This document shows positions 6,100 through 34,660 of a stretch of 38,746 nt of DNA, piece by piece. The notes under the pieces are model-generated. The model was not told the origin of the DNA. It saw only the letters and a program-made list of their open reading frames with translations, and ran no database searches. Source of the DNA: a virus (Duplodnaviria > Heunggongvirae > Uroviricota > Caudoviricetes); IMG/VR virus record IMGVR_UViG_2740892229_000013; one strand, 5' to 3'. The position numbers were made by a program, and so were the translations under genes. Positions within the stretch are counted from its first letter, which is position 1, and each line of letters starts with the position of its first letter.

Positions 6100-6624
6100 T
6101 CAAAAAGGCAAAATTCGTTCAACCCAATCGAACAAAACAACTATTTTTCTACCGTTCTCGACACGTAGTGTAACCTGACAAGCATCTGCGCCTGCTGACA
6201 CCCCCTCAATTTCACGGCCATCCGCCATGTACACCCTTATAGATTTGTTTGCTTTGTAGGCTTGGTTGCAAATTGCAAAAAAATCGCGGCGTGATGGCCG
6301 ATTATCGACATAATCAGGGTGAACTGTTAGTCGACCTTTGAAATCGTGAGCGATACTGTCAACCACACCTGATTCAATTGTACTAATGCGTTCAAGTGGG
6401 AGCCTTATACGATTTTCTTTGTCAAAAGGGGCTGGGCAAAGGTCAACTTTGTTACGAGATGGCATGAGGCCATAAACGTACATGCAAAACGCCTGGCCAT
6501 CTTCGAGAGTGACCCTTACAGGAATTTGTTCTCTGCGCCAGAACATCAGTAGTTTTTCAACGTTAGTGTAATCTCGCGGCCAGAGTTCAGCTTGGATACC
6601 GTAGGTAATATCTTTGGTTGTCAT
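6100..6624 (-). CDS. Hypothetical cytoplasmic protein (174 aa); possible tandem Sm/SH3-like (Rof/Hfq-like) barrels
   Basis: Track ORF 6100..6702 trimmed to ATG 6624 (the rest overlaps the upstream gene). Two segments, IPVRVTLEDGQ...IRLPLERISTIE and IRVYMADGREIEG...VVLFDWVERI, fit the Rof/Hfq pattern from memory. Confidence 0.7.
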   Translation of the reverse strand: MTTKDITYGIQAELWPRDYTNVEKLLMFWRREQIPVRVTLEDGQAFCMYVYGLMPSRNKVDLCPAPFDKENRIRLPLERISTIESGVVDSIAHDFKGRLTVHPDYVDNRPSRRDFFAICNQAYKANKSIRVYMADGREIEGVSAGADACQVTLRVENGRKIVVLFDWVERILPF

Positions 6625-6628
6625 GTCA

Positions 6629-7093
6629 TCACAGAGTTGTTGGCAGAATGTCGATGTCACCAGAATTGCTGGTGAACACCCTGAACGCTTTTGTGTCTCC
6701 ATTCTTCAGAGTCGTTTCTCGCTCTTGACGAGCGGGGTTTAGAGCACATAAACCTGCACCTTCAAGAGATGCACCCACAATTAATTCTCCGGCATTTAAA
6801 TGGAAAGTCGCTTTTTCGCCTGTAGCCAGTTTTGCGACAGTTTCGCCATTGATGAAAATGGAAGCATCACATCCAGCTCCTACAAAACCTGTGTCTCTCA
6901 TTACCACCAACGTAGCTGGCGCTGCGCTTTGATACTTGAACACTTTGGCCTGCGGTGCTGGTTTGGCGTCATGGATTGATATTGGACGTGATTGGCACGC
7001 GGTAAGCATCAACACTGGTAACGTTAGTAGAGGGAGAAGCGAGTATTTCATGTTAGTTTTAGAACAGAAAGTGAACAGTATGGGAGACTTCAT
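6629..7093 (-). CDS. Outer-membrane-type lipoprotein (154 aa; alternative start 7051)
   Basis: Lipobox L-T-A-C with Gln at +2. GGGAG RBS before ATG 7093. Beta-rich mature domain. Confidence 0.8.
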   Translation of the reverse strand: MKSPILFTFCSKTNMKYSLLPLLTLPVLMLTACQSRPISIHDAKPAPQAKVFKYQSAAPATLVVMRDTGFVGAGCDASIFINGETVAKLATGEKATFHLNAGELIVGASLEGAGLCALNPARQERETTLKNGDTKAFRVFTSNSGDIDILPTTL

Positions 7094-7119: not shown

Positions 7120-7398
7120 TTATTTTAATCTGCTTAATAGCGTTTCGAGATCTTCCTTTGTCATATTAGAGTTCTCATAGATACGCATGATTTTCTCACG
7201 AGTCTTAGCGGAAGCCCCGACAGAAGATATAACCTTGTCAAAGTCGGCCATTGTCAATTGTTCCAGAATGGTATTAATGACTTCAGCCTTAGACATTTTG
7301 ATATTTTTTTCTTTTAGTTTCACTTGAAACTTTCCAAGTTTGTCATTGGCCTTATCAGACAATGCTACCTGACAGTAAGTTGTTTTCTTTTCACTCAT
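7120..7398 (-). CDS. Hypothetical protein (92 aa), N-terminal ribbon-helix-helix-like
   Basis: ORF track. The strand-helix-helix pattern TTYCQVALS / DKANDKLGKF / SKAEVINTILEQL is a pattern-level call only. Starts 2 nt after the helicase stop. Confidence 0.65.
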   Translation of the reverse strand: MSEKKTTYCQVALSDKANDKLGKFQVKLKEKNIKMSKAEVINTILEQLTMADFDKVISSVGASAKTREKIMRIYENSNMTKEDLETLLSRLK

Positions 7399-8999: not shown

Positions 9000-9025
9000 A
9001 TTATAATAAGTAAGTGATTACTTAG
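9000..9025. promoter_or_regulatory. Divergent promoter core: palindromic -10 ATTATAAT (9000-9007) plus degenerate GTAAGT-N4-ACTTAG palindrome (9010-9025)
   Basis: TATAAT reads on both strands. The 82-bp gap separates the divergent helicase and ParB-like operons. The -35 elements are weak. Confidence 0.45.
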
Positions 9026-9042: not shown

Positions 9043-9726
9043 ATGGATGTAAAAATCACGATTTTGCAGGTTGATGTTGCCAACCTTCGCCCGAATACCT
9101 GGAACACCAATTCGGTTGGTGCGCAGAATTTTGAAAAACTGAAAGGTTCTATCGAAAAATTGGGCTTTTTTAAGCCAATTTTGGCTCGTGAACTTGAAGA
9201 TGGATTTTTTGAAATCCTCGGCGGCGAACATCGCTGGCGTGCCGCTATTGAGCAAGGAATTTCAACGGTTCCAGTGCTTTCTGTGGGCAAAATTAGCGAT
9301 GTCGTAGCTAAACAGATGTCACTGGTGGACAACGAGCGATACGGTGAAGACGACCAAATCGCATTGCAACGCTTCATTGAAGAAATTCAGTCAGAACTTG
9401 ACTATCAACTGTCTGAAATCGCCCCGTATGACGACGAAATCTCGATGGTTTTAGCAAAAGAGGCGGCAATCGACCTTGAAGCACTGGAGGCGTTGTCTCG
9501 TGGTAGTGATGAGCCTGTCGATACCGACAAACGAGAGAAAACCGAACGTGTGGGGGCGGAACATCAGACCATGCGCTTCAAAGTAACTTTCGATGCGTCA
9601 GATCGTGTTGCAGAAACCATAAAAAACATCATCAAAGAGCAGGCTATTAACACCGGTAATGAAATGGAGAACGCTGGTGAGGCTCTGGTGTGGCTGGTCG
9701 ACTACTACTACAAGGAGCGTATGTAA
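9043..9726 (+). CDS. ParB/Srx N-terminal-domain protein 1 (227 aa; alternative GTG start 9025)
   Basis: ParB arginine box ILGGEHRWRAA. Acidic central linker. The stop overlaps the next start (TAATG). Confidence 0.8.
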   Translation: MDVKITILQVDVANLRPNTWNTNSVGAQNFEKLKGSIEKLGFFKPILARELEDGFFEILGGEHRWRAAIEQGISTVPVLSVGKISDVVAKQMSLVDNERYGEDDQIALQRFIEEIQSELDYQLSEIAPYDDEISMVLAKEAAIDLEALEALSRGSDEPVDTDKREKTERVGAEHQTMRFKVTFDASDRVAETIKNIIKEQAINTGNEMENAGEALVWLVDYYYKERM

Positions 9727-10394
9727 TGACCAAAAAGTTTGAAATCGTATATCGCGACCCGGCAGATCTTATTCCCTATGAGATGAATGCCAAAAAGCAT
9801 GATGAACAGCAGATCCGAGATCTAGCCGCAGCCATTAAAAAGCGCGGATTTGACCAGCCAATTACGGTCGATAAGAACGACGTAATTATTACTGGCCACG
9901 GCCGCCGTGAGGCTGCAATTTTTGCTGGACTTGAGCGCGTACCGGTTATTGTTCGCGATGATCTCAGTGATGACGAGGTTCGTGCGAAGCGCCTTGAAGA
10001 TAACCGACTTGCCAGCATTGATTACGATGCAATTAAGCTACAGAAAGAGCTTGAGTCGCTTGTTCTGGACGATATCGAGGTTTTCGGCTTTGAAGAGCGT
10101 GAGTTGAATGTTCTCGTTGGCAGCATGACAGAAGAAATGGACACCGACTCGCTAGTTATCGATCTTGGCGAAGAAACTAAACGACAGAAGGATGAACACA
10201 CCGAGATCAGTCGTGAAGTTGCAGCGGAAGAAGTACGTGTTGTCGACGTATTGGGCTTTAAAACGCTTCCTGCTGGCTCTGCCATTGTTGTTGGTGATTT
10301 GCTTGCCCACATGGAAGAAATGACGGGAGAAAGCGGGGTAGACGCATTTGTGGCATATGCGGAGAAGATCTCTTCCGGGGAGATGGCTGTATGA
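9726..10394 (+). CDS. ParB/Srx N-terminal-domain protein 2 (222 aa)
   Basis: Track ORF 9690 trimmed to ATG 9726 (AAGGAG at 9712-9717). Motif ITGHGRREAA. Acidic linker. Confidence 0.8.
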   Translation: MTKKFEIVYRDPADLIPYEMNAKKHDEQQIRDLAAAIKKRGFDQPITVDKNDVIITGHGRREAAIFAGLERVPVIVRDDLSDDEVRAKRLEDNRLASIDYDAIKLQKELESLVLDDIEVFGFEERELNVLVGSMTEEMDTDSLVIDLGEETKRQKDEHTEISREVAAEEVRVVDVLGFKTLPAGSAIVVGDLLAHMEEMTGESGVDAFVAYAEKISSGEMAV

Positions 10395-11056
10395 GCAAAT
10401 ACATCATCAACGTATCGTTTCAGACACGCGTAAATAAAACCACGCGCACGTTGGAAATCGCTGAGTCGTTCGGGCTTGGCCTGGACGAAAAAGAGTGGAC
10501 GCTTTACGACAATCTGGAGCTGGAAGTGAAGCAGGGCGATGTGGTGTACATCACCGGCCAATCCGGTTCCGGCAAATCCGTTGTGCTGCGCGAGTTGCAA
10601 CGACAGATGAAGGATGAAGGGCTGTCTGTAGCCTCCATCGATGATTTTACCTTCGATAATGAGGTTAACGTCATCGATCAGTTGGGCAAAACGACCAGCG
10701 ATGCGCTTGGGTTGTTATCTATGGCTGGTCTGAACGATGCATATCTGTTTGTTCGCAAGCCTTCTGAAATGTCAGACGGTCAGAAATATCGTCTCAAGAT
10801 TGCCAAACTGATTGAGTCAGGCGCTAAAGTGTGGGCTGCTGACGAGTTCGGTGCTGTTCTAGACCGTGTAACCGCTCAGGTTGTGGCATCTAACCTCCAG
10901 CGTGCCGCTCGAAAGGTTGGTGCGACGGTAATGGTGGCGACGACTCACGAAGACCTGAAGAACGCGCTGCGCCCGGATATGCAGATCACCAAGCACTACA
11001 AAGAACGCGTGAAGGTGGAATATCACAATGGTAGTCATGATGAGGTTCATTTATGA
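10391..11056 (+). CDS. ABC-type / P-loop ATPase (221 aa)
   Basis: Walker A GQSGSGKS, signature-like SDGQKYR, Walker B VWAADEF, H-loop-like TTHED. ATGA overlaps at both ends. Confidence 0.85.
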   Translation: MSKYIINVSFQTRVNKTTRTLEIAESFGLGLDEKEWTLYDNLELEVKQGDVVYITGQSGSGKSVVLRELQRQMKDEGLSVASIDDFTFDNEVNVIDQLGKTTSDALGLLSMAGLNDAYLFVRKPSEMSDGQKYRLKIAKLIESGAKVWAADEFGAVLDRVTAQVVASNLQRAARKVGATVMVATTHEDLKNALRPDMQITKHYKERVKVEYHNGSHDEVHL

Positions 11057-11943
11057 CGGACATCATCATTAAACGCTACCGCCCTGAAGAGTTTCCGCGT
11101 CATCTGGACTTTCTGGAGCGAATGACTGTCACAAAGGGAACTGTAGAGGACTGGCACGCTCTTAAGTCGCTTCACTACAAAACAGACGGCAAACCTTTCG
11201 CGCCAACTTACTATCGCTGCGAACTTGATGACCGTCTGGTGGGCGTCGTGGTTATGGCTTACCCGAAACTACTGCTGGCACCTCGCCACCGCATGTTTCC
11301 TAAGTTGAAACCAACCACTAATACCACCGTGGCTAACCAGTACTGGGGTCGGTACGTGAATAACAACTTTGCGGTGATCAGTCGCTCAGTTGTGGATACT
11401 CAGTATCGTGGCGTAGGCGTCTCTTATCGAATGATTAACCTGGTTAGCAGGATGCATGACCGGCCAATCATTGAGATCCAGTCCTCGATGAGCAAATACA
11501 ATCCCTTCGCCATGAAAGCAGGGTTTAAGTTCATCCGCCCTGAGCGACCGAAGAGCTATGAAAGTGCACTGCGTGTATTCCAGCGCCATTTCCGTTCCGA
11601 CCCGGGTGATAACGAGGCGATCGTCAAAGAATTGTTCGCAATGAGCGAGTCTCGTCGTCGCCGTGCACTGCGTGATCTGGTGGCGGACTACCACAAGAAC
11701 AGTTCCCTGGCAAAAGCTGGGCGGAATCGTGGCACGACGATTCAGGACATTGCCGACAGTCTGGTGGACGAGGCCAGCATTGTGAAGCTGCTCAAGGACA
11801 TTCACAACCTGAGCTTTACGTCTCCGTTGTATGGTGTGTACCGAAACCCTGACTTTGGCCGTCGACTGCCTGACACGCTGCCACTGCTGGCATTCGACAA
11901 ACAACCTTTGGATAAACCGTTAGAAATTGCTTTACCGGCATAA
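11053..11943 (+). CDS. GNAT-like acyltransferase-domain protein with helical C-terminal extension (296 aa)
   Basis: Motif-A-like VVDTQYRGVGVS and motif-B-like NPFAMKAGFKF, from pattern recognition only. Confidence 0.6.
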   Translation: MTDIIIKRYRPEEFPRHLDFLERMTVTKGTVEDWHALKSLHYKTDGKPFAPTYYRCELDDRLVGVVVMAYPKLLLAPRHRMFPKLKPTTNTTVANQYWGRYVNNNFAVISRSVVDTQYRGVGVSYRMINLVSRMHDRPIIEIQSSMSKYNPFAMKAGFKFIRPERPKSYESALRVFQRHFRSDPGDNEAIVKELFAMSESRRRRALRDLVADYHKNSSLAKAGRNRGTTIQDIADSLVDEASIVKLLKDIHNLSFTSPLYGVYRNPDFGRRLPDTLPLLAFDKQPLDKPLEIALPA

Positions 11944-11952
11944 GGATTTGCC

Positions 11953-12219
11953 ATGACGTTAACCGATAAACAAAAGGACATCATCAAAACGCTCAATCTC
12001 GGTTATGAGCGAGGTCATCTACTTGACCTGGACGAATTGCTTGAAGTTTTGCCGTACAAGACAACCAAGCAAAGTATCCAGTTCTCAATTCGCGCTCTGA
12101 TAAAAAAGGGGCTGGTGGAGAAAGGGCATACGCGCCAACGCAGTGACAATCGCTATCACCGCCGAACTCTTGGGTTAACCACTTTAGGTCGAGCCAAAGC
12201 GAAGTTACTGGTGATGTAA
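11953..12219 (+). CDS. Small winged-helix DNA-binding protein (88 aa)
   Basis: wHTH-like segment TTKQSIQFSIRALIKKGLVEKG. TAAGGA RBS. Last gene before the packaging module. Confidence 0.6.
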   Translation: MTLTDKQKDIIKTLNLGYERGHLLDLDELLEVLPYKTTKQSIQFSIRALIKKGLVEKGHTRQRSDNRYHRRTLGLTTLGRAKAKLLVM

Positions 12220-12252
12220 TCGGTCTGGGAGCTTATTTAAAGACCTGCATCT

Positions 12253-12289
12253 GTATATATAAATAATAAGTAACTTATTAAATATATAC
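12253..12289. repeat. AT-rich imperfect palindrome centred on AATAAGT-A-ACTTATT (12265-12279)
   Basis: Perfect 15-bp palindrome with GTATATAT...ATATATAC outer arms. Shares the TAAGTA half-site with the GTAAGTA palindrome family. Confidence 0.5.
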
Positions 12290-12336
12290 GGAAGCAGGCT
12301 TCGTAAGACATGCCAGACCTAATTAAACACCCCAGA

Positions 12337-13047: not shown

Positions 13048-14303
13048 TGGCAATCCCGTCCTCGCTCAGTCTTGTGCAACTGCATTCTGGACAGATGAAA
13101 GTCTTCCAGTCTCCGCATCGATTTAAAGTTGTTTGTGCTGGTCGACGCTGGGGAAAATCCCGGTTGTCGATCTCCACTATTATTCGTGCGGCGGCAAAGG
13201 AAAAAAAGCAAAGGGTCTGGTATGTCGCTCCTACTTACCAGATGGCTCGCCAGATTTTGTGGGACGATCTACAGGAAGTTCTGCCTCGTAAGTGGGTTAG
13301 GAAAAAGAACGACACCACGATGACAATCGTGTTGAAGAACGGTTCGGAGATCGCCCTCAAAGGTGCTGATAAGCCTGACACTCTGCGCGGCGTAGCGTTG
13401 CATTTTGTAGTGCTTGATGAATTTCAGGATATGAAGGCTGACACTTGGTACAAGGTGTTACGACCTACTCTTTCATCGACACGCGGCGGTGCACTGATCA
13501 TTGGTACGCCAAAAGGCTTCTCGGAATTTCACAAACTGTGGACTATAGGCCAGAACGTAGAGCTGCAAAGAAAGGGACAGTGGAAGAGCTGGCAGTTTGT
13601 AACTGCCGATTCTCCGTTTGTACCTACGGCGGAAATTGAAGCTGCTAAGAACGATATGGACCCCAAATCGTTCGCTCAGGAGTACCTGGCCAGCTTTGAG
13701 AACATGTCCGGGCGCGTTTACTACCCGTTCGATCGTAACGTGCATGTAAAACCGCTTCAGTTCAACCCTCGGTTACCTATATGGGTAGGGCAGGACTTCA
13801 ACATTGACCCGATGTCTTCCGTAATTTTGCAACCTCAGCCAAATGGTGAGCTATGGGCAATTGATGAATTGGTGCTCTTTTCCTCTAACACGGCAGAGGT
13901 TTGTGATGAGCTTGAGAGACGCTTCTGGCGCTGGAAATCACAGATAACGATATTTCCAGATCCGGCAGGTGCTTATCGCCAACATGCTCGCGGGGAGTCT
14001 GACGTCGACATATTCAAAGAGAAGGGATTCTTACGTGTCGATTATTCGAAAAAGCACCCGCCAATTGCGGATCGTGTTAATGCTGTTAACCGAATGCTGA
14101 TGACCGCATCTGGAGATATCCGGCTGTATATCGATCCGAAGTGCAAGCATTTGATTGATTCACTGGAAAAAGTCATCTACAAGCCTGGAACACGAGATAT
14201 GGATAAGACAGGTGGCATTGAGCATAGTGCAGACGCATTGGGCTATCCAGTACATCGTAGGTATCCAGTCAAAAACCGTGTTATTCTTGGTGGTTCTCGA
14301 TAG
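13047..14303 (+). CDS. Terminase large subunit (418 aa)
   Basis: Walker A CAGRRWGKS, Walker B VVLDEFQD. Size and position upstream of the portal gene. Confidence 0.9.
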   Translation: MAIPSSLSLVQLHSGQMKVFQSPHRFKVVCAGRRWGKSRLSISTIIRAAAKEKKQRVWYVAPTYQMARQILWDDLQEVLPRKWVRKKNDTTMTIVLKNGSEIALKGADKPDTLRGVALHFVVLDEFQDMKADTWYKVLRPTLSSTRGGALIIGTPKGFSEFHKLWTIGQNVELQRKGQWKSWQFVTADSPFVPTAEIEAAKNDMDPKSFAQEYLASFENMSGRVYYPFDRNVHVKPLQFNPRLPIWVGQDFNIDPMSSVILQPQPNGELWAIDELVLFSSNTAEVCDELERRFWRWKSQITIFPDPAGAYRQHARGESDVDIFKEKGFLRVDYSKKHPPIADRVNAVNRMLMTASGDIRLYIDPKCKHLIDSLEKVIYKPGTRDMDKTGGIEHSADALGYPVHRRYPVKNRVILGGSR

Positions 14304-14329
14304 GTAAGTAATTATCTAAGGTTATTCAA

Positions 14330-15904
14330 ATGGAATTGAACGACAAACAAATTAAGGATCTGGTGGCGCGACGCCACCCGGAATACGAAAAGAAAAAAGA
14401 ACATTGGGACTTCCTCGCCAGCACTTACGCTGGCGGGCGTGGTTGGTTTACAGACAATATCTTTCGTTACTTTAAAGAGGGAGATCAGGAGTTTAAGGAG
14501 CGAGTTGAACGTGCTTATCGCTTCAACCACACTCGTGAGGTGGTAAACCTCATCAACAAATATCTCTTTAAAGAAGACATTCATAGAAATATCGAAGAGG
14601 CACCAGAGCAGATCCGCAATTTCTGGAAACGTGCGACTCGCCAGAATGCCTCTATTGACTCATTTATGGCCGCTATTGATTTGCAGTCGTCTATTTACGG
14701 TCGCATATGGGTTGTTGTCGATAGCACGATGAGTGGTGATGTTGAGTCAGTAGCTGACGAGAAAAAGAAAGATGCTCGCGCCTACGCCTACTGGATTTCA
14801 CCTCAGCAAATGCTGGATGTGGCATGGGACGACGACGGGAATATGTTGTGGGCGTTAATTGTGGAAGTCGCTCGTGATGACGCAGATCCTTTTACTTCTA
14901 CAGGTCAGGAATACCAACGTTATCGTCTGTGGACACAAAACGAGTGGTATCTGTTCCGTGAGGAAGTGAAGAAGGGCGCTGGTGGAGCAGGTCGCCGTCA
15001 GGCAAAAGTTATTTTAGAGGATAGCGGTGAGCATAATCTCGGCGTAGTTCCTGTGTTTCCTGTTGATTGTATTGGAGAAAGTGAATCACCGTATTTCAGC
15101 CCATCGTTGATCGATGATATCGCTTATCTTGATCGTGCGGTTGCAAACTATCTGTCAAACCTTGATGCCATTATTCAGGATCAGACATTTAGCCAGTTGG
15201 CTATACCGGTACAGTCGCTTTTACCTGGTGATGAAAACCACACTAAAGTGCTTGAAATGGGCACAAAGCGAGTCTTCACCTACGATTCTGAAGGTGGAAA
15301 CCAGCCGTTTTATCTGTCACCAGACCCGAAACAAGCTCAGATGATCATCACTACGATTAAGACGGTGATTAACGAAATCTACCATTCAGTTGGTGTAGCT
15401 GGTGAGCGAACGAAGCAGGACAACGCACAGGGAATCGATAACTCATCTGGGGCCGCAAAAATGTATGACTTCCAGCGTGTAAATAGCTTGCTTGTCACAA
15501 AAGCAGAGCGTCTGGAAAGGGCTGAACGCCAAATCATGCTACTGGTTGCGAAATGGATGGGGGTAGATCTGGACGAAGACCACTCTTTAATTGCGTATCC
15601 AGAAAGTTTCGATATTCGTGGCCTTACAGATGAATTTTCTGTTGCCGAGAAACTGTCATTACTTCAGGCACCGGACTCTGTACGTCGTCACCAGATGGAA
15701 ATGCTTATTGAGAAGATTTTCCCGAACATTACTGAGGCGATGAAAAAGGAATTTGATAAAGATCTCTTGAATTTTCCGCCAAAAAATGATCTAAATACCC
15801 TTGAAAATAAGTCAGTACTTACTTATGATCGTGGTGTGGCCCAAGAAAGCGGGCAAGATCAACCCCGAGGGAATGGGGACTCATCTACTCAAGAGAACGA
15901 GTGA
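14330..15904 (+). CDS. Portal protein (524 aa)
   Basis: Size and position directly after TerL. Acidic C-terminal tail. Confidence 0.85.
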   Translation: MELNDKQIKDLVARRHPEYEKKKEHWDFLASTYAGGRGWFTDNIFRYFKEGDQEFKERVERAYRFNHTREVVNLINKYLFKEDIHRNIEEAPEQIRNFWKRATRQNASIDSFMAAIDLQSSIYGRIWVVVDSTMSGDVESVADEKKKDARAYAYWISPQQMLDVAWDDDGNMLWALIVEVARDDADPFTSTGQEYQRYRLWTQNEWYLFREEVKKGAGGAGRRQAKVILEDSGEHNLGVVPVFPVDCIGESESPYFSPSLIDDIAYLDRAVANYLSNLDAIIQDQTFSQLAIPVQSLLPGDENHTKVLEMGTKRVFTYDSEGGNQPFYLSPDPKQAQMIITTIKTVINEIYHSVGVAGERTKQDNAQGIDNSSGAAKMYDFQRVNSLLVTKAERLERAERQIMLLVAKWMGVDLDEDHSLIAYPESFDIRGLTDEFSVAEKLSLLQAPDSVRRHQMEMLIEKIFPNITEAMKKEFDKDLLNFPPKNDLNTLENKSVLTYDRGVAQESGQDQPRGNGDSSTQENE

Positions 15905-15925
15905 TAAGTAACAAAGGGAATTTTT

Positions 15926-17714: not shown

Positions 17715-17746
17715 TCAGTGTGGTAGATAAGCAATTATCTATGTTT

Positions 17747-17775
17747 AAGGGTGGGCTATACGCCCACCCTTTTTG
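17747..17775 (+). terminator. Rho-independent terminator
   Basis: AAGGGTGGGC (17747-17756) / GCCCACCCTT (17762-17771), T-run 17770-17774. Confidence 0.9.
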
Positions 17776-21299: not shown

Positions 21300-21319
21300 T
21301 AGTAAGTATATACTTACTA
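21300..21319. promoter_or_regulatory. Perfect 20-bp palindrome TAGTAAGTATATACTTACTA
   Basis: Self-complementary on hand check. ~50 bp upstream of ATG 21368. The core GTAAGTATATACTTAC is 15/16 identical to 1955-1970. Confidence 0.65.
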
Positions 21320-21367
21320 TTAGCGCAATGAATGCGTAGAATTAACGGAAAAAGGAGTTTTCCATCA

Positions 21368-25800: not shown

Positions 25801-27398
25801 AACAGAAACTGGCAGCCGGATACCAGAAGGCTCTGGACAAAGCCGATCAGCTTATGGGGCAAATGGGTGAAAGCTCTAAGGCTACGGTATCGTTTGATCA
25901 GTCTCTTCGCGATACAACGAAATCGCTGACAGATTTGGCTAATGCGGTTCCTAACGAGTTCATCACTCAAGAGATGATCGACAAGGCGAAAAAACGTCTT
26001 GAAGACCTCAAAAATGCGACACCTGAATATCGCGAGATGTTTAATCGCCGCAATGTTGAGCAGATGATCTCCACTTGGGCACCGGAGGCGGATTCCATTA
26101 TTAGTGCTGGCTATACGCCGTCTCGCGAAGATAAAGTTGCTGATTTCGAAGACACCTACAACCGCAATCTCAAAGCGTTGATAGAACTTCGTGATAAGGC
26201 GTCTGATCCTAAAGTTGTGGCGCTTTATACAAAGAAAATCAATCAACTGATTGCTGCTGGCAATACCGCGCTTATTAAAGAGACGGGGACTGCGACGCAG
26301 AAGTTGGCACTGGAATACGAAAACTTGGCAGAGCAGATCGAAAGCACCTGGACTGATTTGTTTAGTGGCTTAACTGATGTCCTGACTGATTTCGTTATTA
26401 ACGGGAAGATGAGCTTCTCCAGCCTATCTCAGTCCATTTTGAAAGATATCACCAATATGGTCGTGAAGTCGCAAATCACGCTGCCTCTAATGAACATGTT
26501 GGGGATGGGAACCACCGCAGCTGGTAGTTCACAGAGTGGCAATTTGCTCACTGGAGTTGCTTCTGCCGTTGCCAATCAAGGTGTACGAATGGGCAACACT
26601 GTTAATGGCGACAAGTCGGTAGGAGAAGCCACGAAGGAGACGTCCAGTTCGGTAACTGGATTGGGGCAAACAACACAGCAGACCACCAGCGCAATTGGCA
26701 CAGCAACAAATGCGATTGGTAGCTGGGTATCGGGGCTATTTGATAGCACCGAAGCCAAAGATGCCGAGACAAAAGCCGTGAAGGACTCCATCTTCTCGAT
26801 GCAGAACCTCAGCTCTGTTACCGGCGCGCTGTCTGCCGCGTTTGCAATGCTTGGAGCTAATGCTTCCGGCTCTGGTAATAAGTGGTTGAGTTTTGGAGCA
26901 ACGGTTGCATCTGGTCTTGTTTCAGCTTGGGCTGGCGGTGGTTTCGACAGCTTGACATCAAGCTCTGCTAAAACCGCAACCAGCAGTGTGGCTGACGGAA
27001 CTAAAGGCATTCCTGCAATCCCGAAGTTTGCAAATGGAGGAATATTCGGAAAAGACGGCGTGATCCCGCTCCGGGCATACCAGAAAGGCGGTATTGCTAA
27101 CTCGCCTCAATTAGCGTTGTTTGGGGAAGGTTCTATGAATGAGGCGTATGTTCCATTGCCTGATGGCCGAACAATCCCTGTAACGCTCAGTACCGATGGT
27201 ATGAGTGGAGGCGGAAATGTTCTTTCTCCTGTATCAATTGAGATCAACGTCCATAGTGACGGTAGCACAACTGAATCCGGCGATACAGAAAGCATATGGA
27301 ACAATGCCGCTCAACGGATGAAAGCAATCGCGCTTGAGACTATCGCTCAAGAGAAACGCCCTGGCGGATCACTCAACCCAAACACTCAACGTAACTAA
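22824..27398 (+). CDS. Tail tape measure protein (1524 aa; alternative start 22845)
   Basis: Size, position, long helical regions, a hydrophobic central segment, and a lambda gpH-like C-terminal motif ALFGEGSMNEAYVPLPDGR. Confidence 0.95.
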   Translation: MAEDDKGMSQNVEFILSLEDKQFTASIDRAGKLLTRFGEQVTKPAQKIQTFERSLGSVARIIGVLESKLDSTADKLQDVAAGFELASDATRKMRGNITSLNSGLKALIERVDTTTSSVDKLTASLRKVQSELNDFSDWATYASKSASRFGTEVKEASVSVSGMNTRLNTTTKRLSNWGVTTSQAAEGLKKVREQMDEVIGRQQLISKPVRVRTSGSGDGGSGRRSGASGHSGKSNEGGMFSGLRGNIFLLGEIGDAARTVTDIMFGWQKPIVEAAAEMERMRVMLRGLNKEKSNPGQAAADDMKYIVDMAQNAPFAMQALTDSFVKFRSAGLDPTDGSLKALVDSVARFGGDSELLKRAAVAVQQMSGKGVVSMEELRQQLGEAVPNAMQAMADAAGITMGELTKAVASGTVEAKQALSLMFVGLRAENENAAKDMMQTYTGALAQLQTSFTLFADRVGQAGYLDSLSKGMKELASIMNSAEGISFANSLGSGLTTAIDGLRQLAQWLAKNQELVINLGKVVAAMVAFKLMRAGIMGVVGAGSQMVSTFATMATAIQTPFNLGATAVTRFNRAARMGLAPIPSLIFAIRGAITGLKGAFAGLTAFIAANPIGAAFTVATVAVAGLITYMTMLRSETSKVVDEIRKIPEAMTAAKRAQMADRAEKLEKQILADQRALKNGEGVNYVSNSAGVITHKESKADIEARLKKNQEEYQKITGTIALGDGAVAKRLAKEAAESQIEKIRAENQIFAATFVKARQEALDKIQKINDDGSLSDDEKNKLLAPLRETVNKSYLEPAQKLVDSLSSRKNATEKQIATLNDQLEKAKKDGNTEQIQKLQGSIRGYQEHLEAVAQELTQAEFERDNAAKTGKGVMSNQGTVLGLGTTDKAAQKALAQYMRNQMDSATYQRTLPDGTPMMDFEGKPIIGPKQLKTQLNLQKASSASSLEKMSDEERAAAIAALTKAREQDAAAAEKAAQRSANASQRAAKKEQAAQQKLAAGYQKALDKADQLMGQMGESSKATVSFDQSLRDTTKSLTDLANAVPNEFITQEMIDKAKKRLEDLKNATPEYREMFNRRNVEQMISTWAPEADSIISAGYTPSREDKVADFEDTYNRNLKALIELRDKASDPKVVALYTKKINQLIAAGNTALIKETGTATQKLALEYENLAEQIESTWTDLFSGLTDVLTDFVINGKMSFSSLSQSILKDITNMVVKSQITLPLMNMLGMGTTAAGSSQSGNLLTGVASAVANQGVRMGNTVNGDKSVGEATKETSSSVTGLGQTTQQTTSAIGTATNAIGSWVSGLFDSTEAKDAETKAVKDSIFSMQNLSSVTGALSAAFAMLGANASGSGNKWLSFGATVASGLVSAWAGGGFDSLTSSSAKTATSSVADGTKGIPAIPKFANGGIFGKDGVIPLRAYQKGGIANSPQLALFGEGSMNEAYVPLPDGRTIPVTLSTDGMSGGGNVLSPVSIEINVHSDGSTTESGDTESIWNNAAQRMKAIALETIAQEKRPGGSLNPNTQRN

Positions 27399-27776: not shown

Positions 27777-27783
27777 GTATCTG

Positions 27784-27808
27784 GATAAGTAAGTACTAAT
27801 TTACTATC
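27784..27808. promoter_or_regulatory. Imperfect palindrome GATAAGTAAGTACTAATTTACTATC (GTAAGTA family)
   Basis: Arms GATAAGTAA / TTACTATC with one indel. Intergenic between the M-like and L-like genes. Confidence 0.4.
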
Positions 27809-27858
27809 ATTGTGGCGCTGACAGGATGTTAGCGCTTACTTATTTTAAGGATGAAACA

Positions 27859-29942: not shown

Positions 29943-32900
29943 ATGGAACAGTTCAAGAAGAAAAAATTACCGCTTCTTATTGCCGGTGCTGGTGGCAAGA
30001 AAAGTAAAAGCTCCAGCCGTACCCCGGTTGAAGCTGATGATACTGTCAATTCTCGTGCTATGGCAGCCATCCTCGACCTTCTTGGCGAGGGGGTTATCGG
30101 TGGCCTGGTAAATGGCGCAAAGTCGATCTTCATCGACGATTTACCGATCTTGAATGAAGATGGCTCTTCCAACTTCAGCGGTATTACATGGGATTTTCGT
30201 GACGGCTCACAAGATCAGACGCCAATGGCTGGTTTTGATTTTGTCGAAACGCCTAAGTCCGTAAATATTCAGCTTAAAAAAACACACGACGTTACGGTTT
30301 CAATCGATAACGATGAAGCTGATCGCGTTCGTGTCATCATGAAATTCCCCTCTTTACGTAGCGTTGATAAAAGCTCTGGCGATACAAATGGCACTACGGT
30401 GAAGTACAAATTCCAGATCGCCAACGCAGACGCAACATTTTCTGATGTAGTGGCAGAAGGTGAGAAAAGCGTTGATATCACGCTAACGGCAAAGAAAACC
30501 GGCGTGTATTACCGTAGCTATGAGCTGAAACTGCCTAAGCCTGGTCGTGCATACAAGGTTAGGGTGATTCGTCTTACAGATGATAATAGTAGCCAGTACC
30601 TCTACAACGACACATGGGTTGATTCCATCGGTGAGATTGTCGACACGCCAATGAACTACCCTAACTCTGCTCTTGTTGGCTTGAAGGTCAATTCAGAGCA
30701 GTTTGGTAGCACAATGCCTTCCCGTTCGTATTTGGTGCGCGGTATCAAAATCCGAGTACCGTCAAACTACAACGAATACACCAATACTTATGTCGGCGTA
30801 TGGGACGGTACTTTTAAGCTGTTGTCTTCTTCAAACCCTGCGTGGATTCTCTACGATTTGCTTACCAATACTCGGTATGGTCTTGGGCAATTTGTGTCGG
30901 AATCCATGATTGACCTCGGCCAGCTCTACCAGATTGGTCGATATTGTGACGAAGAGGTCGATGATGGCTTTGGGGGTAAAGAGAAACGCTTTGCAATCAA
31001 TACGCAGATCACCAGTCGACAAGACGCATACCGATTAATTCAGGATATTGCCGGTGCATTCCGCGGCATGGTGTTTTGGGCTGGTGGCATGGTTAACATC
31101 ATGCAGGATAGCCCATCAGATCCGGTAATGATGTTTACCAACTCCAACGTCAAAGATGGACTGTTTACCTATAAAGGTTCTGCGCGTAAAGATCGCCCAT
31201 CCGTTGCGCTCGTAACCTACAACAACAAGGAGGACGGTTATAAGCAAAACATCGAGTACGTTGAAGATCAGGACGCAATGCGCCGTTATGGTGAGCTTAA
31301 AACAGAAGTCGTAGCATTTGGGTGTACAAGCCGAGGCCAGGCTCACCGAGTAGGTTTGTGGCTTTTGTATACCGCCAGAATGGAGTCGGATGTAATTACA
31401 TTTACTGCCGGCTTAGACGCCTCATTTCTGATGCCTGGTGAAACCGTTCTGATTCAGAACAAATATCGTGCAGGTAAACGTAACTCCGGTCGAATTGTGG
31501 AGTTTGCCAAAAACAGCATCACTCTCGATGCGCCTGTGTCGTTAGCTAAAAGCGGCAGCTTTATTCGGATATTGAATCAGGAAGGCAAAATCGTTGAACG
31601 CGATGTTCTTGAAACTGGCGAAAACATAACAAAGGTTACGTTTTCAAAAGCCCTGTCGTCAGCGGAAACGCCTGTTTTGAACGGTGTCTGGACAATTACA
31701 GAACCAGATCTCGAACCTATGCGCGTTCGCATCGTTAACATCGCGCAGGGGGAAACGCCGGGTAGCTTTGACATCACCGCTGTTGAGAACAATCCGTCTA
31801 AATATGAGGCAATCGACAATGGTGCAACGCTGATCCCGCAGAATACGACGGTATTGGACCCGACTTACTCCAAGCCATCTAATTTGCAAATCACTGAAGG
31901 GACTTATCTCTCAAGCCCGGGCAACCTGTCAGTAAAACTGACTGCAACATGGGAAGGGAAATCTCCAGAGTATTGGATCAGTTGGCGACGTTCTGATGAA
32001 AACAATGTATCGAACTGGCAATCGGCGCGTGTAACCGAAGAGCAATACGAAATCGTTAATGTCGCGGAGAATGGACGCTACGACTTCCAACTGTATGCGG
32101 TTTCATTCAACGGTAAAAAAACAGAGATTATCAGTACCGTTTATCAGGTGTTGGGCACAATGACACCGCCGGATGCCCCAACGTCATTAACGGCCGTTGG
32201 AGACTATCGTAATGTGATACTGAATTGGGTTAATCCAGATTCGGTAGACCTTGATCACATTAATGTTTACGCATCCCAGACCAACAATCTGGATACGGCG
32301 AAACTGATCGCAGAGTCTGCAAGCACCACCTTTACACATGCTGGTCTTGGGGATAGCGAAACGTGGTATTACTGGGTTCGAGCATCGAACAAGCGAGGTA
32401 TGTTAAGCCCTCCGAACTCAAACTTGGGTACAGAGGCGACAACTCGCGATGTACTGTCGTTCCTGGCTGGCAAAATTACATCTTCCGAGCTTGGTCAGGC
32501 TCTGCTTGAGGACATCAACAGCAAAGCCTCTCAAGAAGCAGTTGACGAGTTAAATGAGCATATCAACCAGAGCGTCGAATCTTTGGAGGGGGCGGTAAAC
32601 GACGTTAAGGAAGATATAGCTGAATTAGATAAGCAGTTCAGCGATAACCTCGCGGATTTTGAAATAAAATTCAACGAGCGTAGCGATGCTTTGGAGAACG
32701 CACAAACCGAGCTTAAAGGTGAGGTTTCGGCAACGATCGACAAGGTCAATGAAGCGTTTGAAAAAATTGATGCTACTGATGCTGCAATTGTTGAAATCGA
32801 AAACACCGTATCTGAACACGATAAAGCTCTCGCTAATACAGTCGAGGCAATAAAGGCTGCAAGAGATGAAGCGGCGGCTCTTATTGCTAAGGAAAGCGAG

Positions 32901-34568: not shown

Positions 34569-34601
34569 TGTAGAAAAAAATATTTATATCGGTAAAAATA
34601 A

Positions 34602-34617
34602 GTAGGTACATACTTAA
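34602..34617. promoter_or_regulatory. Palindrome-family copy GTAGGTACATACTTAA
   Basis: 14/16 identical to 1955-1970. 44 bp upstream of ATG 34661, followed by hairpin GGTGGGC/GCCCACC. Confidence 0.55.
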
Positions 34618-34660
34618 TGGTGGGCAAGGATAGCCCACCAAATCAAGGAGCATATTCAAC

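Follow-up and report, generated by a model that had tools for sequence, protein, structure and literature searches.

The perfect 20-bp palindrome TAGTAAGTATATACTTACTA at positions 21300–21319 of IMGVR_UViG_2740892229_000013, a 38,746-nt sequence of a Caudoviricetes virus that we refer to in its entirety as the window, is one copy of what the comparisons below indicate is a real, family-wide regulatory site under strong selection. Tentatively, we read this palindrome as the operator of an element-encoded, homodimeric DNA-binding repressor that would have ~30 such sites per ~108-kb genome. Over a 12-kb stretch the window shares 98.8% identity with Escherichia phage Cyrano (OV696614, plasmid pLF82), 82% with Salmonella phage SSU5 and 79% with Klebsiella phage-plasmids, and it is because of this identity that we assign it to an SSU5/pHCM2-type phage-plasmid of ~108 kb. 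The motif is described in no accessible paper on SSU5, pHCM2 or Cyrano, and its literal sequences went unmatched in the literature.

The genome-wide motif study was carried out on the annotated genomes of Cyrano and SSU5. Conservation was followed in 76 IMG/VR relatives retrieved with the major tail protein as a probe (protein identity 76–100%), and transcription in published RNA-seq data for the LF82 lysogen, including macrophage 6-h samples (PMC9928086, supplementary file 2). Two more distant elements proved useful for comparison: Klebsiella plasmid L086, in which ParB is 66% identical and the intergenic flanks are unrelated to those of the window, and an Acinetobacter baumannii plasmid that has the same gene order as the window and encodes a ParB-like protein and a winged helix-turn-helix (wHTH) homologue that are 38% and 45% identical, respectively.

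The family is described by a fixed 16-bp dyad, RTARGTA-NN-TACYTAY, with TARGT-N4-ACYTA as its minimal form. When up to three mismatches are allowed, GTAAGTAYATACTTAC is found 10 times in the window against 0.2 expected, a number reached by none of 100 shuffles, while the generalised core RTARGTANNTACYTAY at up to two mismatches gives 13 matches, corresponding to eight sites, against 1.6 in shuffles. Non-coding DNA makes up 8.5% of the window and holds 11 of the 13 matches (binomial p 1e-10). The original prediction, which was made from the letters of the window alone, had staked itself on the motif being unequally shared between genes and the gaps between them, and the whole Cyrano genome bears this out: RTARGTA-NN-TACYTAY at up to two mismatches occurs 44 times, in ~30 distinct sites, with 41 of the 44 matches falling in the intergenic 13% of the genome (p 6.6e-33). 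SSU5 contains 48 matches to the unchanged motif. The most over-represented intergenic 7-mers of Cyrano are ATAAGTA, TAAGTAA and ATAGGTA, the first of which, enriched 31-fold in intergenic DNA, has 23 copies in the 14 kb between genes and 4 in the 94 kb of coding sequence.

The dyads are often lengthened by ATAR or YTAT quartets. Quartets are the building blocks of the sequence (ATAR GTAA GTAn nTAC TTAC YTAT), and for this reason many sites can be matched at two positions offset by 4 bp. The motif often provides the stop codon of the upstream gene, as at 14301–14303 in the window and at Cyrano sites 3624, 50256, 79651 and 84620. Quartet repeats such as TAAG TAAG TAA interrupt several reading frames of both strands with stop codons, which partly accounts for the exclusion of the motif from coding DNA.

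The geometry of the dyad is strict. In intergenic DNA the two half-sites TARGT and ACYTA are separated by 4 bp (13 cases) or 8 bp (11 cases, nearly all of them the same sites read through a duplicated ATAA/GTAA quartet), and between −3 and 15 no other spacing was found there, except for a single spacing of 1 that belongs to a separate long inverted repeat. Across 28 Cyrano sites all 28 deviations from the consensus affect a single arm and none is compensated in the other, a pattern that SSU5 shares; at the R4/Y13 pair the combinations AT, AC, GT and GC occur 16, 14, 8 and 2 times, so that A-C is as common as A-T. As the spacing is fixed, the sequence rather than the pairing is conserved and the half-sites vary independently, the pattern points to a rigid dimer on duplex DNA and not to a hairpin. 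That the sites behave as though recognised on double-stranded DNA by a reader of two-fold symmetry is thus supported, by computation only; to this extent the dimeric phage regulator of the original prediction, which had left operator and activator site side by side, finds its counterpart in the symmetry, the spacing and the independent arms.

The same data bear on the idea that the repeats are not duplex operators at all, being instead transcribed stem-loops or small mobile elements of the REP/PeSL-like boundary type. Many sites do sit in very short gaps next to a Shine-Dalgarno sequence or contribute the stop codon that ends the preceding gene, one is flanked by a stop codon and a terminator, and motif junctions tend to step down in one lysogen condition. 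The mean minimum free energy of the 24-nt sites as RNA is −3.3 kcal/mol vs −0.8 kcal/mol for shuffles, and the change of motif seen in Acinetobacter (see below) preserves pairing as well. However, the stems are AU-rich, only 6–7 bp long and weak, compensated changes are absent within any genome, A-C mismatches are as common as G-T pairs, and it is the sequence that is kept; on the independence of the two arms we reject the hairpin model. Mobile spread is argued against by the positions of the sites, which are kept from E. coli to Acinetobacter. We regard this reading, in either version, as extremely improbable.

Conservation of the sites was assessed next. The block around 21300–21319, GGTAAGTATATACTTA, is nearly invariant in the 41 distinct upstream sequences that the 76 relatives provide, while both of its flanks vary freely. 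Five window sites (this one and those at the TerL/portal junction, at the 3′ end of the portal gene, behind the major capsid gene and between the tail M-like and L-like genes) hold their place across 57 loci, and their variants keep the dyad; the positional conservation on which the original prediction had likewise depended is therefore present. The motif is unchanged in SSU5, in Cronobacter elements and in the Klebsiella plasmid with a ParB only 66% identical. In the Acinetobacter plasmid it is replaced at the same gene junctions by a TCAGT-N4-ACTGA family (18 matches vs 1.3 expected), the same half-site position having changed symmetrically at all orthologous sites. Since every Acinetobacter site shows this symmetric change, the reader probably is a product of the element itself and would co-evolve with its sites. 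Family, geometry, enrichment, positional conservation and co-variation were all computed directly.

It is in this light that a host-encoded reader has to be considered. GTAAG-N6-CTTAC is the inner 16 bp of the 18-bp UvrY consensus TGTAAG-N6-CTTACA (PMC4682653), the dyad and the UvrY box being identical in half-site core and spacing; positions 1954–1971 match 11 of the 12 specified bases, as well as csrB does, and the motif is invariant across Enterobacterales hosts. If UvrY/SirA/GacA read the dyads, the lytic genes would be tied to BarA-UvrY signalling. Beyond the core the two diverge: the outer T/A of the box is not kept, the base before GTAAG being mostly A or G, and the TA..TA inside N6 is conserved in the phage sites but not in the UvrY sites. 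Their position relative to promoters differs too, as UvrY activates from about −180 (PMC4682653) whereas the dyads overlap core promoters, and so does the Acinetobacter variant, GTCAG..CTGAC. A role of the host factor therefore seems very improbable to us.

The Pectobacterium plasmid NZ_KP942676 could have served as an intermediate lineage. There, N4 dyads, N8 dyads and TACGTA-type motifs are all unenriched and only remnants are seen; because no dyad family is enriched, we consider this lineage uninformative and, as an intermediate, mildly contrary. At 26375–26392 of this plasmid, before the major tail gene, the arms stand 8 bp apart (TAAGT-AAAGGAAT-ACTTA), with the Shine-Dalgarno sequence within the spacer and the ATG overlapping the right arm.

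The eight sites of the window are as follows.

21300–21319: the site with which we began; core GTAAGTA-TA-TACTTAC at 21302–21317, ending 51 bp before the start of the major tail gene (21368); overlaps a promoter-like TTGAAT (21285)-18-TATACT (21309–21314), the dyad covering the −10.

1955–1970: GTAAGTA-CA-TACTTAC, after an intrinsic terminator and 44 bp before the open reading frame (ORF) start at 2014; overlaps TTGTAA (1953)-17-TAGAAT (1976–1981), for which the orthologous SSU5 site has TTGTAA-17-TAATAT.

9006–9025: ATAAGTAAGTGATTACTTAG, in the gap from which the helicase/92-aa ORF operon (minus strand) and the ParB…wHTH operon (plus strand) diverge; adjoined by a perfect minus-strand TATAAT (9005 to 9000); its counterparts are a perfect match, GTAAGTAATTACTTAT, in Cronobacter relatives and ATAAGTCAGTACTGACTGAT in Acinetobacter.

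14300–14319: ATAGGTAAGTAATTATCTAA, in the 26-nt gap between the TerL and portal genes, where TAG at 14301–14303 is the TerL stop codon; position kept, with dyad-preserving variants, in 31 distinct relatives and Klebsiella L086, and of the TCAGT type in Acinetobacter.

15807–15826: ATAAGTCAGTACTTACTTAT, within the 3′ end of the portal gene and conserved in 32 distinct relatives; constitutes the exact 17-bp spacer of TTGAAA (15801)-17-TATGAT (15824–15829).

17727–17742: ATAAGCAATTATCTAT, between the stop codon of the major capsid gene and its intrinsic terminator (17749–17775); position kept in 31 distinct relatives.

27785–27804: ATAAGTAAGTACTAATTTAC, intergenic between the tail M-like and L-like genes and retained in 41 distinct relatives; promoter-like TGGATA-17-TATCAT at 27782–27810, followed by a GC hairpin at 27814–27836.

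34598–34617: ATAAGTAGGTACATACTTAA, 44 bp before the start of the tail-fibre gene (34661), with a hairpin next to it at 34619–34639; orthologues at Cyrano 22448 and SSU5 21937.

The three copies that had been singled out as strong (1955, 21300 and 34602) were all recovered, including the perfect 20-bp symmetry of the second. Their distance to the next start codon, put at 44–50 bp, is 44, 51 and 44 bp when counted from the end of the core, which agrees for the outer two and exceeds the range by one for the site before the major tail gene. Among the degenerate copies then listed, those in the 9010, 14304 and 27784 regions are members of the family, and the sites at 15807–15826 and 17727–17742 had been missed. 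Two listed copies do not belong. The first, at 12265–12279 (AATAAGTAACTTATT), has a half-site spacing of 1 rather than 4 and forms the centre of a separate long inverted repeat, and the second, at 15904–15911, is a lone half-site that is not kept in a diverged relative.

The long AT-centred inverted repeat just mentioned, CCTGCaTCTGTATATAT...ATATATACgGAaGCAGG at 12244–12299, lies between the wHTH gene and terS and is distinct from the 16-bp dyad. Cyrano has two further copies, at 31160–31210 and 78085–78130, and lysogen RNA falls more than 100-fold across the former (from CYRAN_30 to CYRAN_31). The repeat may be a bidirectional terminator or insulator, or else a pac- or ori-related element. 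As for the small GC hairpins, they follow three of the dyads within a few bases (21323–21337, 27814–27836 and 34619–34639), and the pairing of the first is kept in relatives by compensatory changes (AGCGCA..TGCGT, GGCACC..GGTGC, GTGTC..GACAC). If transcription starts just upstream, these hairpins could act as 5′-terminal mRNA stabilisers.

Genome-wide, the genes that follow the sites are structural, lysis, replication, recombination and nucleotide-metabolism genes and the ParB operon, i.e. both early-type and late-type genes. A location upstream of structural and middle genes, as first proposed, thus holds, though the family is not limited to these. The ~30 Cyrano sites precede plus-strand lytic genes, and one of them, in the divergent helicase/ParB gap, also serves a minus-strand operon that is expressed in the lysogen. 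The distribution is like that of dispersed prophage-repressor operators: many copies through the lytic units and, this gap excepted, none at genes expressed in lysogeny. The minus-strand operon, comprising the helicase gene and the 92-aa ORF, is putatively driven by the TATAAT at 9000–9005; it is lysogen-expressed whereas the divergent ParB operon is silent.

The best sigma-70 promoter score near the sites has a genome-wide median of 7.0 vs 4.65 at control intergenic positions, and the scan recovered the TTGTAA-N17-TAGAAT promoter at 1953–1981 that had been noted before. Relative to the predicted promoters the centre of the dyad lies anywhere from ~−34 to 0, in a variable register. Two Acinetobacter dyads make up the 17-bp spacers of TTGAAA-17-TACAAT and TTGATC-17-TATAAT. 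Computation supports the view that, genome-wide, the sites fall at boundaries of transcription units and at promoter-like sequences. In the LF82 lysogen RNA-seq data the genes behind consensus-like promoters are at background level, and in the macrophage 6-h samples expression steps up right after some of the sites (log2 +2.5 over gene 11 for gene 12, behind the 21300–21319 site, +3.6 for gene 56, +3.65 for gene 60 and +2.4 for gene 34). From this we infer that transcription units begin at the sites, with promoters that are competent in themselves but held off.

The repressor-operator reading that we tentatively prefer accommodates these observations as follows. Each dyad would cover the core promoter (about −35 to +1) of a lytic unit transcribed rightward. 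While the element persists as a plasmid-prophage, the dimer would sit on the dyads and exclude RNA polymerase, so that all these units stay silent; inactivation of the reader would release all of them together. A variable register over the core promoter would suit a repressor better than an activator. We infer the promoters, their repression and the identity of the reader alike.

The converse possibility is that a lytic-phase activator, the wHTH protein or another, turns on ~30 otherwise weak promoters in the manner of P1 Lpa or of a MerR-type spacer binder, in which case lysogeny would need only the activator operon to be kept off. Several observations favour it. The wHTH gene lies directly upstream of terS, as lpa does in P1, and its operon is near-silent in the lysogen and carries a dyad, which would allow positive feedback. 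In the most populous class of sites the dyad occupies the promoter spacer, its centre being near −17 to −25, similar to the −22 box of P1, and invariance of both motif and wHTH across hosts is usual for core late-transcription machinery. The step-ups seen after several sites under partial induction speak for activation as well. Nevertheless, several of the promoters already possess a consensus-like −35 at 17–18 bp from a good −10, and activation should therefore be unnecessary there; the register, ranging from −34 to 0 and including positions directly over the −10, is incompatible with one activation geometry; the sites stand before early-type and late-type genes alike; and no Lpa homologue was found in the searches given below. 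A −10 hexamer at a fixed distance, as an Lpa-type or new-sigma promoter would have it, was considered and set aside as a weak tendency: 15 of 28 sites have a TAYnnT behind the right arm, which counts for activation, but a −10-like hexamer at a fixed distance accompanies only 5 of 13 exact dyads. Taken together, we think it unlikely that the dyads are activator sites.

Returning to the repressor-operator reading, several observations weigh against it as well. All promoters are consensus predictions in AT-rich DNA, and three window sites (14300, 17727 and 34598) are without a convincing promoter, one site lying between a stop codon and a terminator. The junction RNA-seq analysis did not reveal a general step-up at motif junctions, and in condition B6 there are significantly more step-downs there, which suggests no more than that the sites are unit boundaries. 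An operator that is invariant across hosts is unusual for an immunity repressor. A repressor gene just upstream of terS, in an operon of lytic orientation, is likewise unusual, this being where late activators, P1 Lpa and RinA among them, are typically encoded. The mRNA of the wHTH candidate is low in the lysogen, at 7.8 normalised counts in LB vs 96 for the putative repressor CYRAN_45. Moreover, co-variation does not separate the wHTH from the ParB-like protein, as each of them has changed in Acinetobacter and each persists in Pectobacterium, and the Pectobacterium plasmid retains homologues of the two even though its dyad family is unenriched. The low wHTH mRNA and the Pectobacterium case count against both of these candidates.

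Four proteins encoded in the window, in the neighbourhood of the dyad-bearing divergent helicase/ParB region, were weighed as possible readers of the dyad.

11953–12219, plus strand: 88-aa MarR-like wHTH protein, encoded by the last gene of the ParB operon, directly upstream of terS.

9046–9726, plus strand: ParB-like protein, whose start codon lies ~20 bp after the 9006–9025 dyad; second candidate.

7120–7398, minus strand: ribbon-helix-helix-like (RHH-like) 92-aa ORF; disfavoured.

6100–6702, minus strand: FljA-family protein; rejected as a reader.

We ranked the wHTH first and the ParB-like protein second; the 88-aa MarR-like wHTH is, in our estimate, the most likely reader, and of the candidates named in the original prediction it is the one that has gained. 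Its AlphaFold (AF2) model has a mean predicted local distance difference test (pLDDT) score of 87.6 and an H-H-H-wing-H topology. Foldseek returned MarR/MexR/MepR and small archaeal wHTH proteins as top matches (template-modelling (TM) score 0.68–0.78), with MarR-DNA (5h3r), MexR and MepR at TM 0.70–0.75 and E down to 4e-4. MarR-family proteins are obligate dimers that bind 16–20-bp (pseudo)palindromes over the −35/−10. A search against Pfam gave no match for the wHTH, and hence none to Pfam MarR. It is the best conserved of the candidates: in elements with the same motif the protein is 78–89% identical and its putative recognition helix, TKQSIQFSIRAL, is invariant; in Acinetobacter the helix reads TKQALQFSIRSL, which differs at two positions. 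In most lysogen conditions the wHTH mRNA is ~2–6-fold above that of the preceding gene. The promoter of the wHTH's own operon appears to carry a dyad, that at 9006–9025, and because of it we propose autoregulation. The wHTH gene is present in ~800 PLSDB plasmids.

The ParB-like protein raises the possibility that the dyads are parS/OB-like loading sites at which this adjacent ParB-family (CTPase-fold) protein would clamp and from which it would slide or spread, in the way of KorB on RK2 or SopB on F and N15, to silence, organise or segregate the element. ParB/SopB sites typically are 16-bp palindromes of 7-2-7 layout. KorB acts from dispersed palindromic operators, both as a global repressor and as a cytidine triphosphate (CTP)-dependent clamp (PMC11790492). 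In addition to its position next to a dyad, the window protein has a ParB_N domain (E 3e-13) and matches Spo0J residues 23–171 (alignment over residues 13–160), and it is conserved along with the motif (66–88%), its C-terminal strand HQTMRFKVT being invariant until it becomes HQIMRFKVP in Acinetobacter. However, the region expected to hold its helix-turn-helix (HTH) is acidic and lacks basic residues, and the AF2 model of the protein failed (pLDDT 41, unusable). The mRNA (CYRAN_119) is at the detection floor in the LB lysogen (log2 2.32, i.e. 5 normalised counts), and the protein is therefore not a silencer or partition protein of the plasmid state. There is also a separate ParA locus elsewhere in the genome, and the strict promoter and intergenic placement of the dyads suggests transcription control rather than partition. 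We consider a ParB-type role improbable; if true, it would represent KorB-like long-range silencing in a clinically widespread phage-plasmid family.

The 92-aa ORF and the FljA-like protein are disfavoured because they are poorly conserved where the motif is invariant. The 92-aa ORF, the other protein that the original prediction had put forward, has a sequence pattern compatible with a ribbon-helix-helix (read directly) and is well expressed in the lysogen (CYRAN_117, 114 normalised counts). Its identity falls to 57% in Cronobacter and to 35% in Klebsiella L086, its putative DNA-facing residues Y/Q/A change to H/Q/Q and S/H/K though the motif does not change, and it shows no similarity to the ORF at the same position in Acinetobacter. 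The FljA-family protein is only 33% conserved in diverged relatives. It is an unexpected find in a phage-plasmid, matching PF03614 ('repressor of phase-1 flagellin') at E 2.5e-84 and having a weak Hfq-like C-terminal match, and its gene is moderately expressed in the lysogen.

The operon at 9046–12219 (plus strand), which ends with the wHTH gene directly upstream of terS/terL, encodes two ParB_N proteins, an ABC-type ATPase and a 296-aa protein besides the wHTH; it is syntenic from E. coli to Acinetobacter and silent in the lysogen. Outside the window, by far the highest plasmid expression in the lysogen (~7000 normalised counts) belongs to Cyrano CYRAN_43, a hypothetical 184-aa protein encoded on the minus strand within an integrase/repressor module that is absent from SSU5. 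A second family of intergenic k-mers (AGTGGAT, GTGGATA, ATAGTGG, AACCACT), DnaA-box-like or iteron-like in appearance, surrounds repA at 60.5–62.4 kb of Cyrano, also outside the window.

Several well-studied systems resemble the one proposed here. P1 and the present element are both plasmid-prophages with dozens of transcription units and a short conserved site at promoters. The annotation of P1 contains many C1 operators. P1 also has 11 late promoters with Lpa boxes that are bound by Lpa (PMC10695390). The Lpa box is a small palindrome that replaces the −35 or lies beside it, the sequences AAGT and ACTT are common to box and dyad, and in both elements a regulator gene, Lpa in P1 and the wHTH candidate here, stands beside the packaging genes. 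They differ in that the P1 box, AAGT-N1-ACTT, occurs at late genes only and at a fixed 4 nt from the −10 (centre −22, no −35), an arrangement that we find as AAGTnACTT, 4 nt and the −10 in six late promoters of the annotated record, whereas the present dyad is AAGT-N4-ACTT, occurs in variable register, in some cases with a consensus-like −35, and precedes early-type and late-type genes. Searches of the window, Cyrano and SSU5 with P1 Lpa (tblastn, phmmer) did not yield a homologue (best E 0.4–0.66), nor did hhalign relate the wHTH profile to Lpa (probability 0.1). By its spacing, register and gene classes, and as no Lpa homologue was detected, the dyad is therefore not a member of the P1 Lpa-box family. 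The C1 operators of P1, for their part, are asymmetric 17-mers while the present site is a symmetric 16-mer.

Mycobacteriophage L5 carries ~30 copies of the gp71 'stoperators' in its early and late lytic operons. Like the present dyads, stoperators lie mostly in short intergenic gaps, often touching stop or start codons, and are thought to silence the whole prophage. They are, however, asymmetric 13-mers that act in an orientation-dependent manner through a monomeric immunity repressor and a block to elongation; the present sites are two-fold symmetric and mostly at promoter-like sequences, and their reader is not identified as the immunity repressor. By analogy, the dyads may work like the dispersed C1 operators of P1 or the stoperators of L5, in a symmetric form. 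MarR operators provide the parallel in geometry, as they too are 16–20-bp palindromes over the −35/−10 (here of predicted promoters), and the wHTH model superposes on MarR/MexR/MepR. In contrast to MarR systems, the wHTH is a minimal winged helix of 88 aa without a Pfam MarR match, and ~30 sites on a mobile element stand against one or a few operators.

The phage-plasmid N15 has dispersed SopB sites. These and the OB sites of RK2 share with the present family palindromes that are dispersed over a plasmid, many of them at promoters, a ParB-family gene beside one site and a logic of global silencing, with ~30 sites here vs 12 or 4 in the KorB and SopB systems. KorB of RK2 belongs to the ParB family and represses globally from dispersed OB operators (PMC11790492). 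KorB is made in the plasmid state and its HTH is canonical, whereas the present ParB-like protein is silent in the lysogen and has a doubtful HTH region. Most probably we are dealing with multi-operator control of a plasmid-prophage and not with a new regulatory principle.

SSU5/pHCM2-type phage-plasmids are common in Escherichia, Klebsiella, Salmonella, Yersinia pestis (pMT1), Enterobacter and Cronobacter. They carry resistance genes, and how their lytic genes stay silent has not been studied. One dyad at ~30 promoters would give experiments on the lysis-lysogeny circuit a concrete starting point: a shortlist of regulators, a DNA probe and, in TAAGT of Enterobacterales and TCAGT of Acinetobacter, a natural swap of specificity. 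The dyad also provides a signature by which the transcription units of these plasmids can be annotated and, in principle, a route to forcing the induction or curing of the plasmids.

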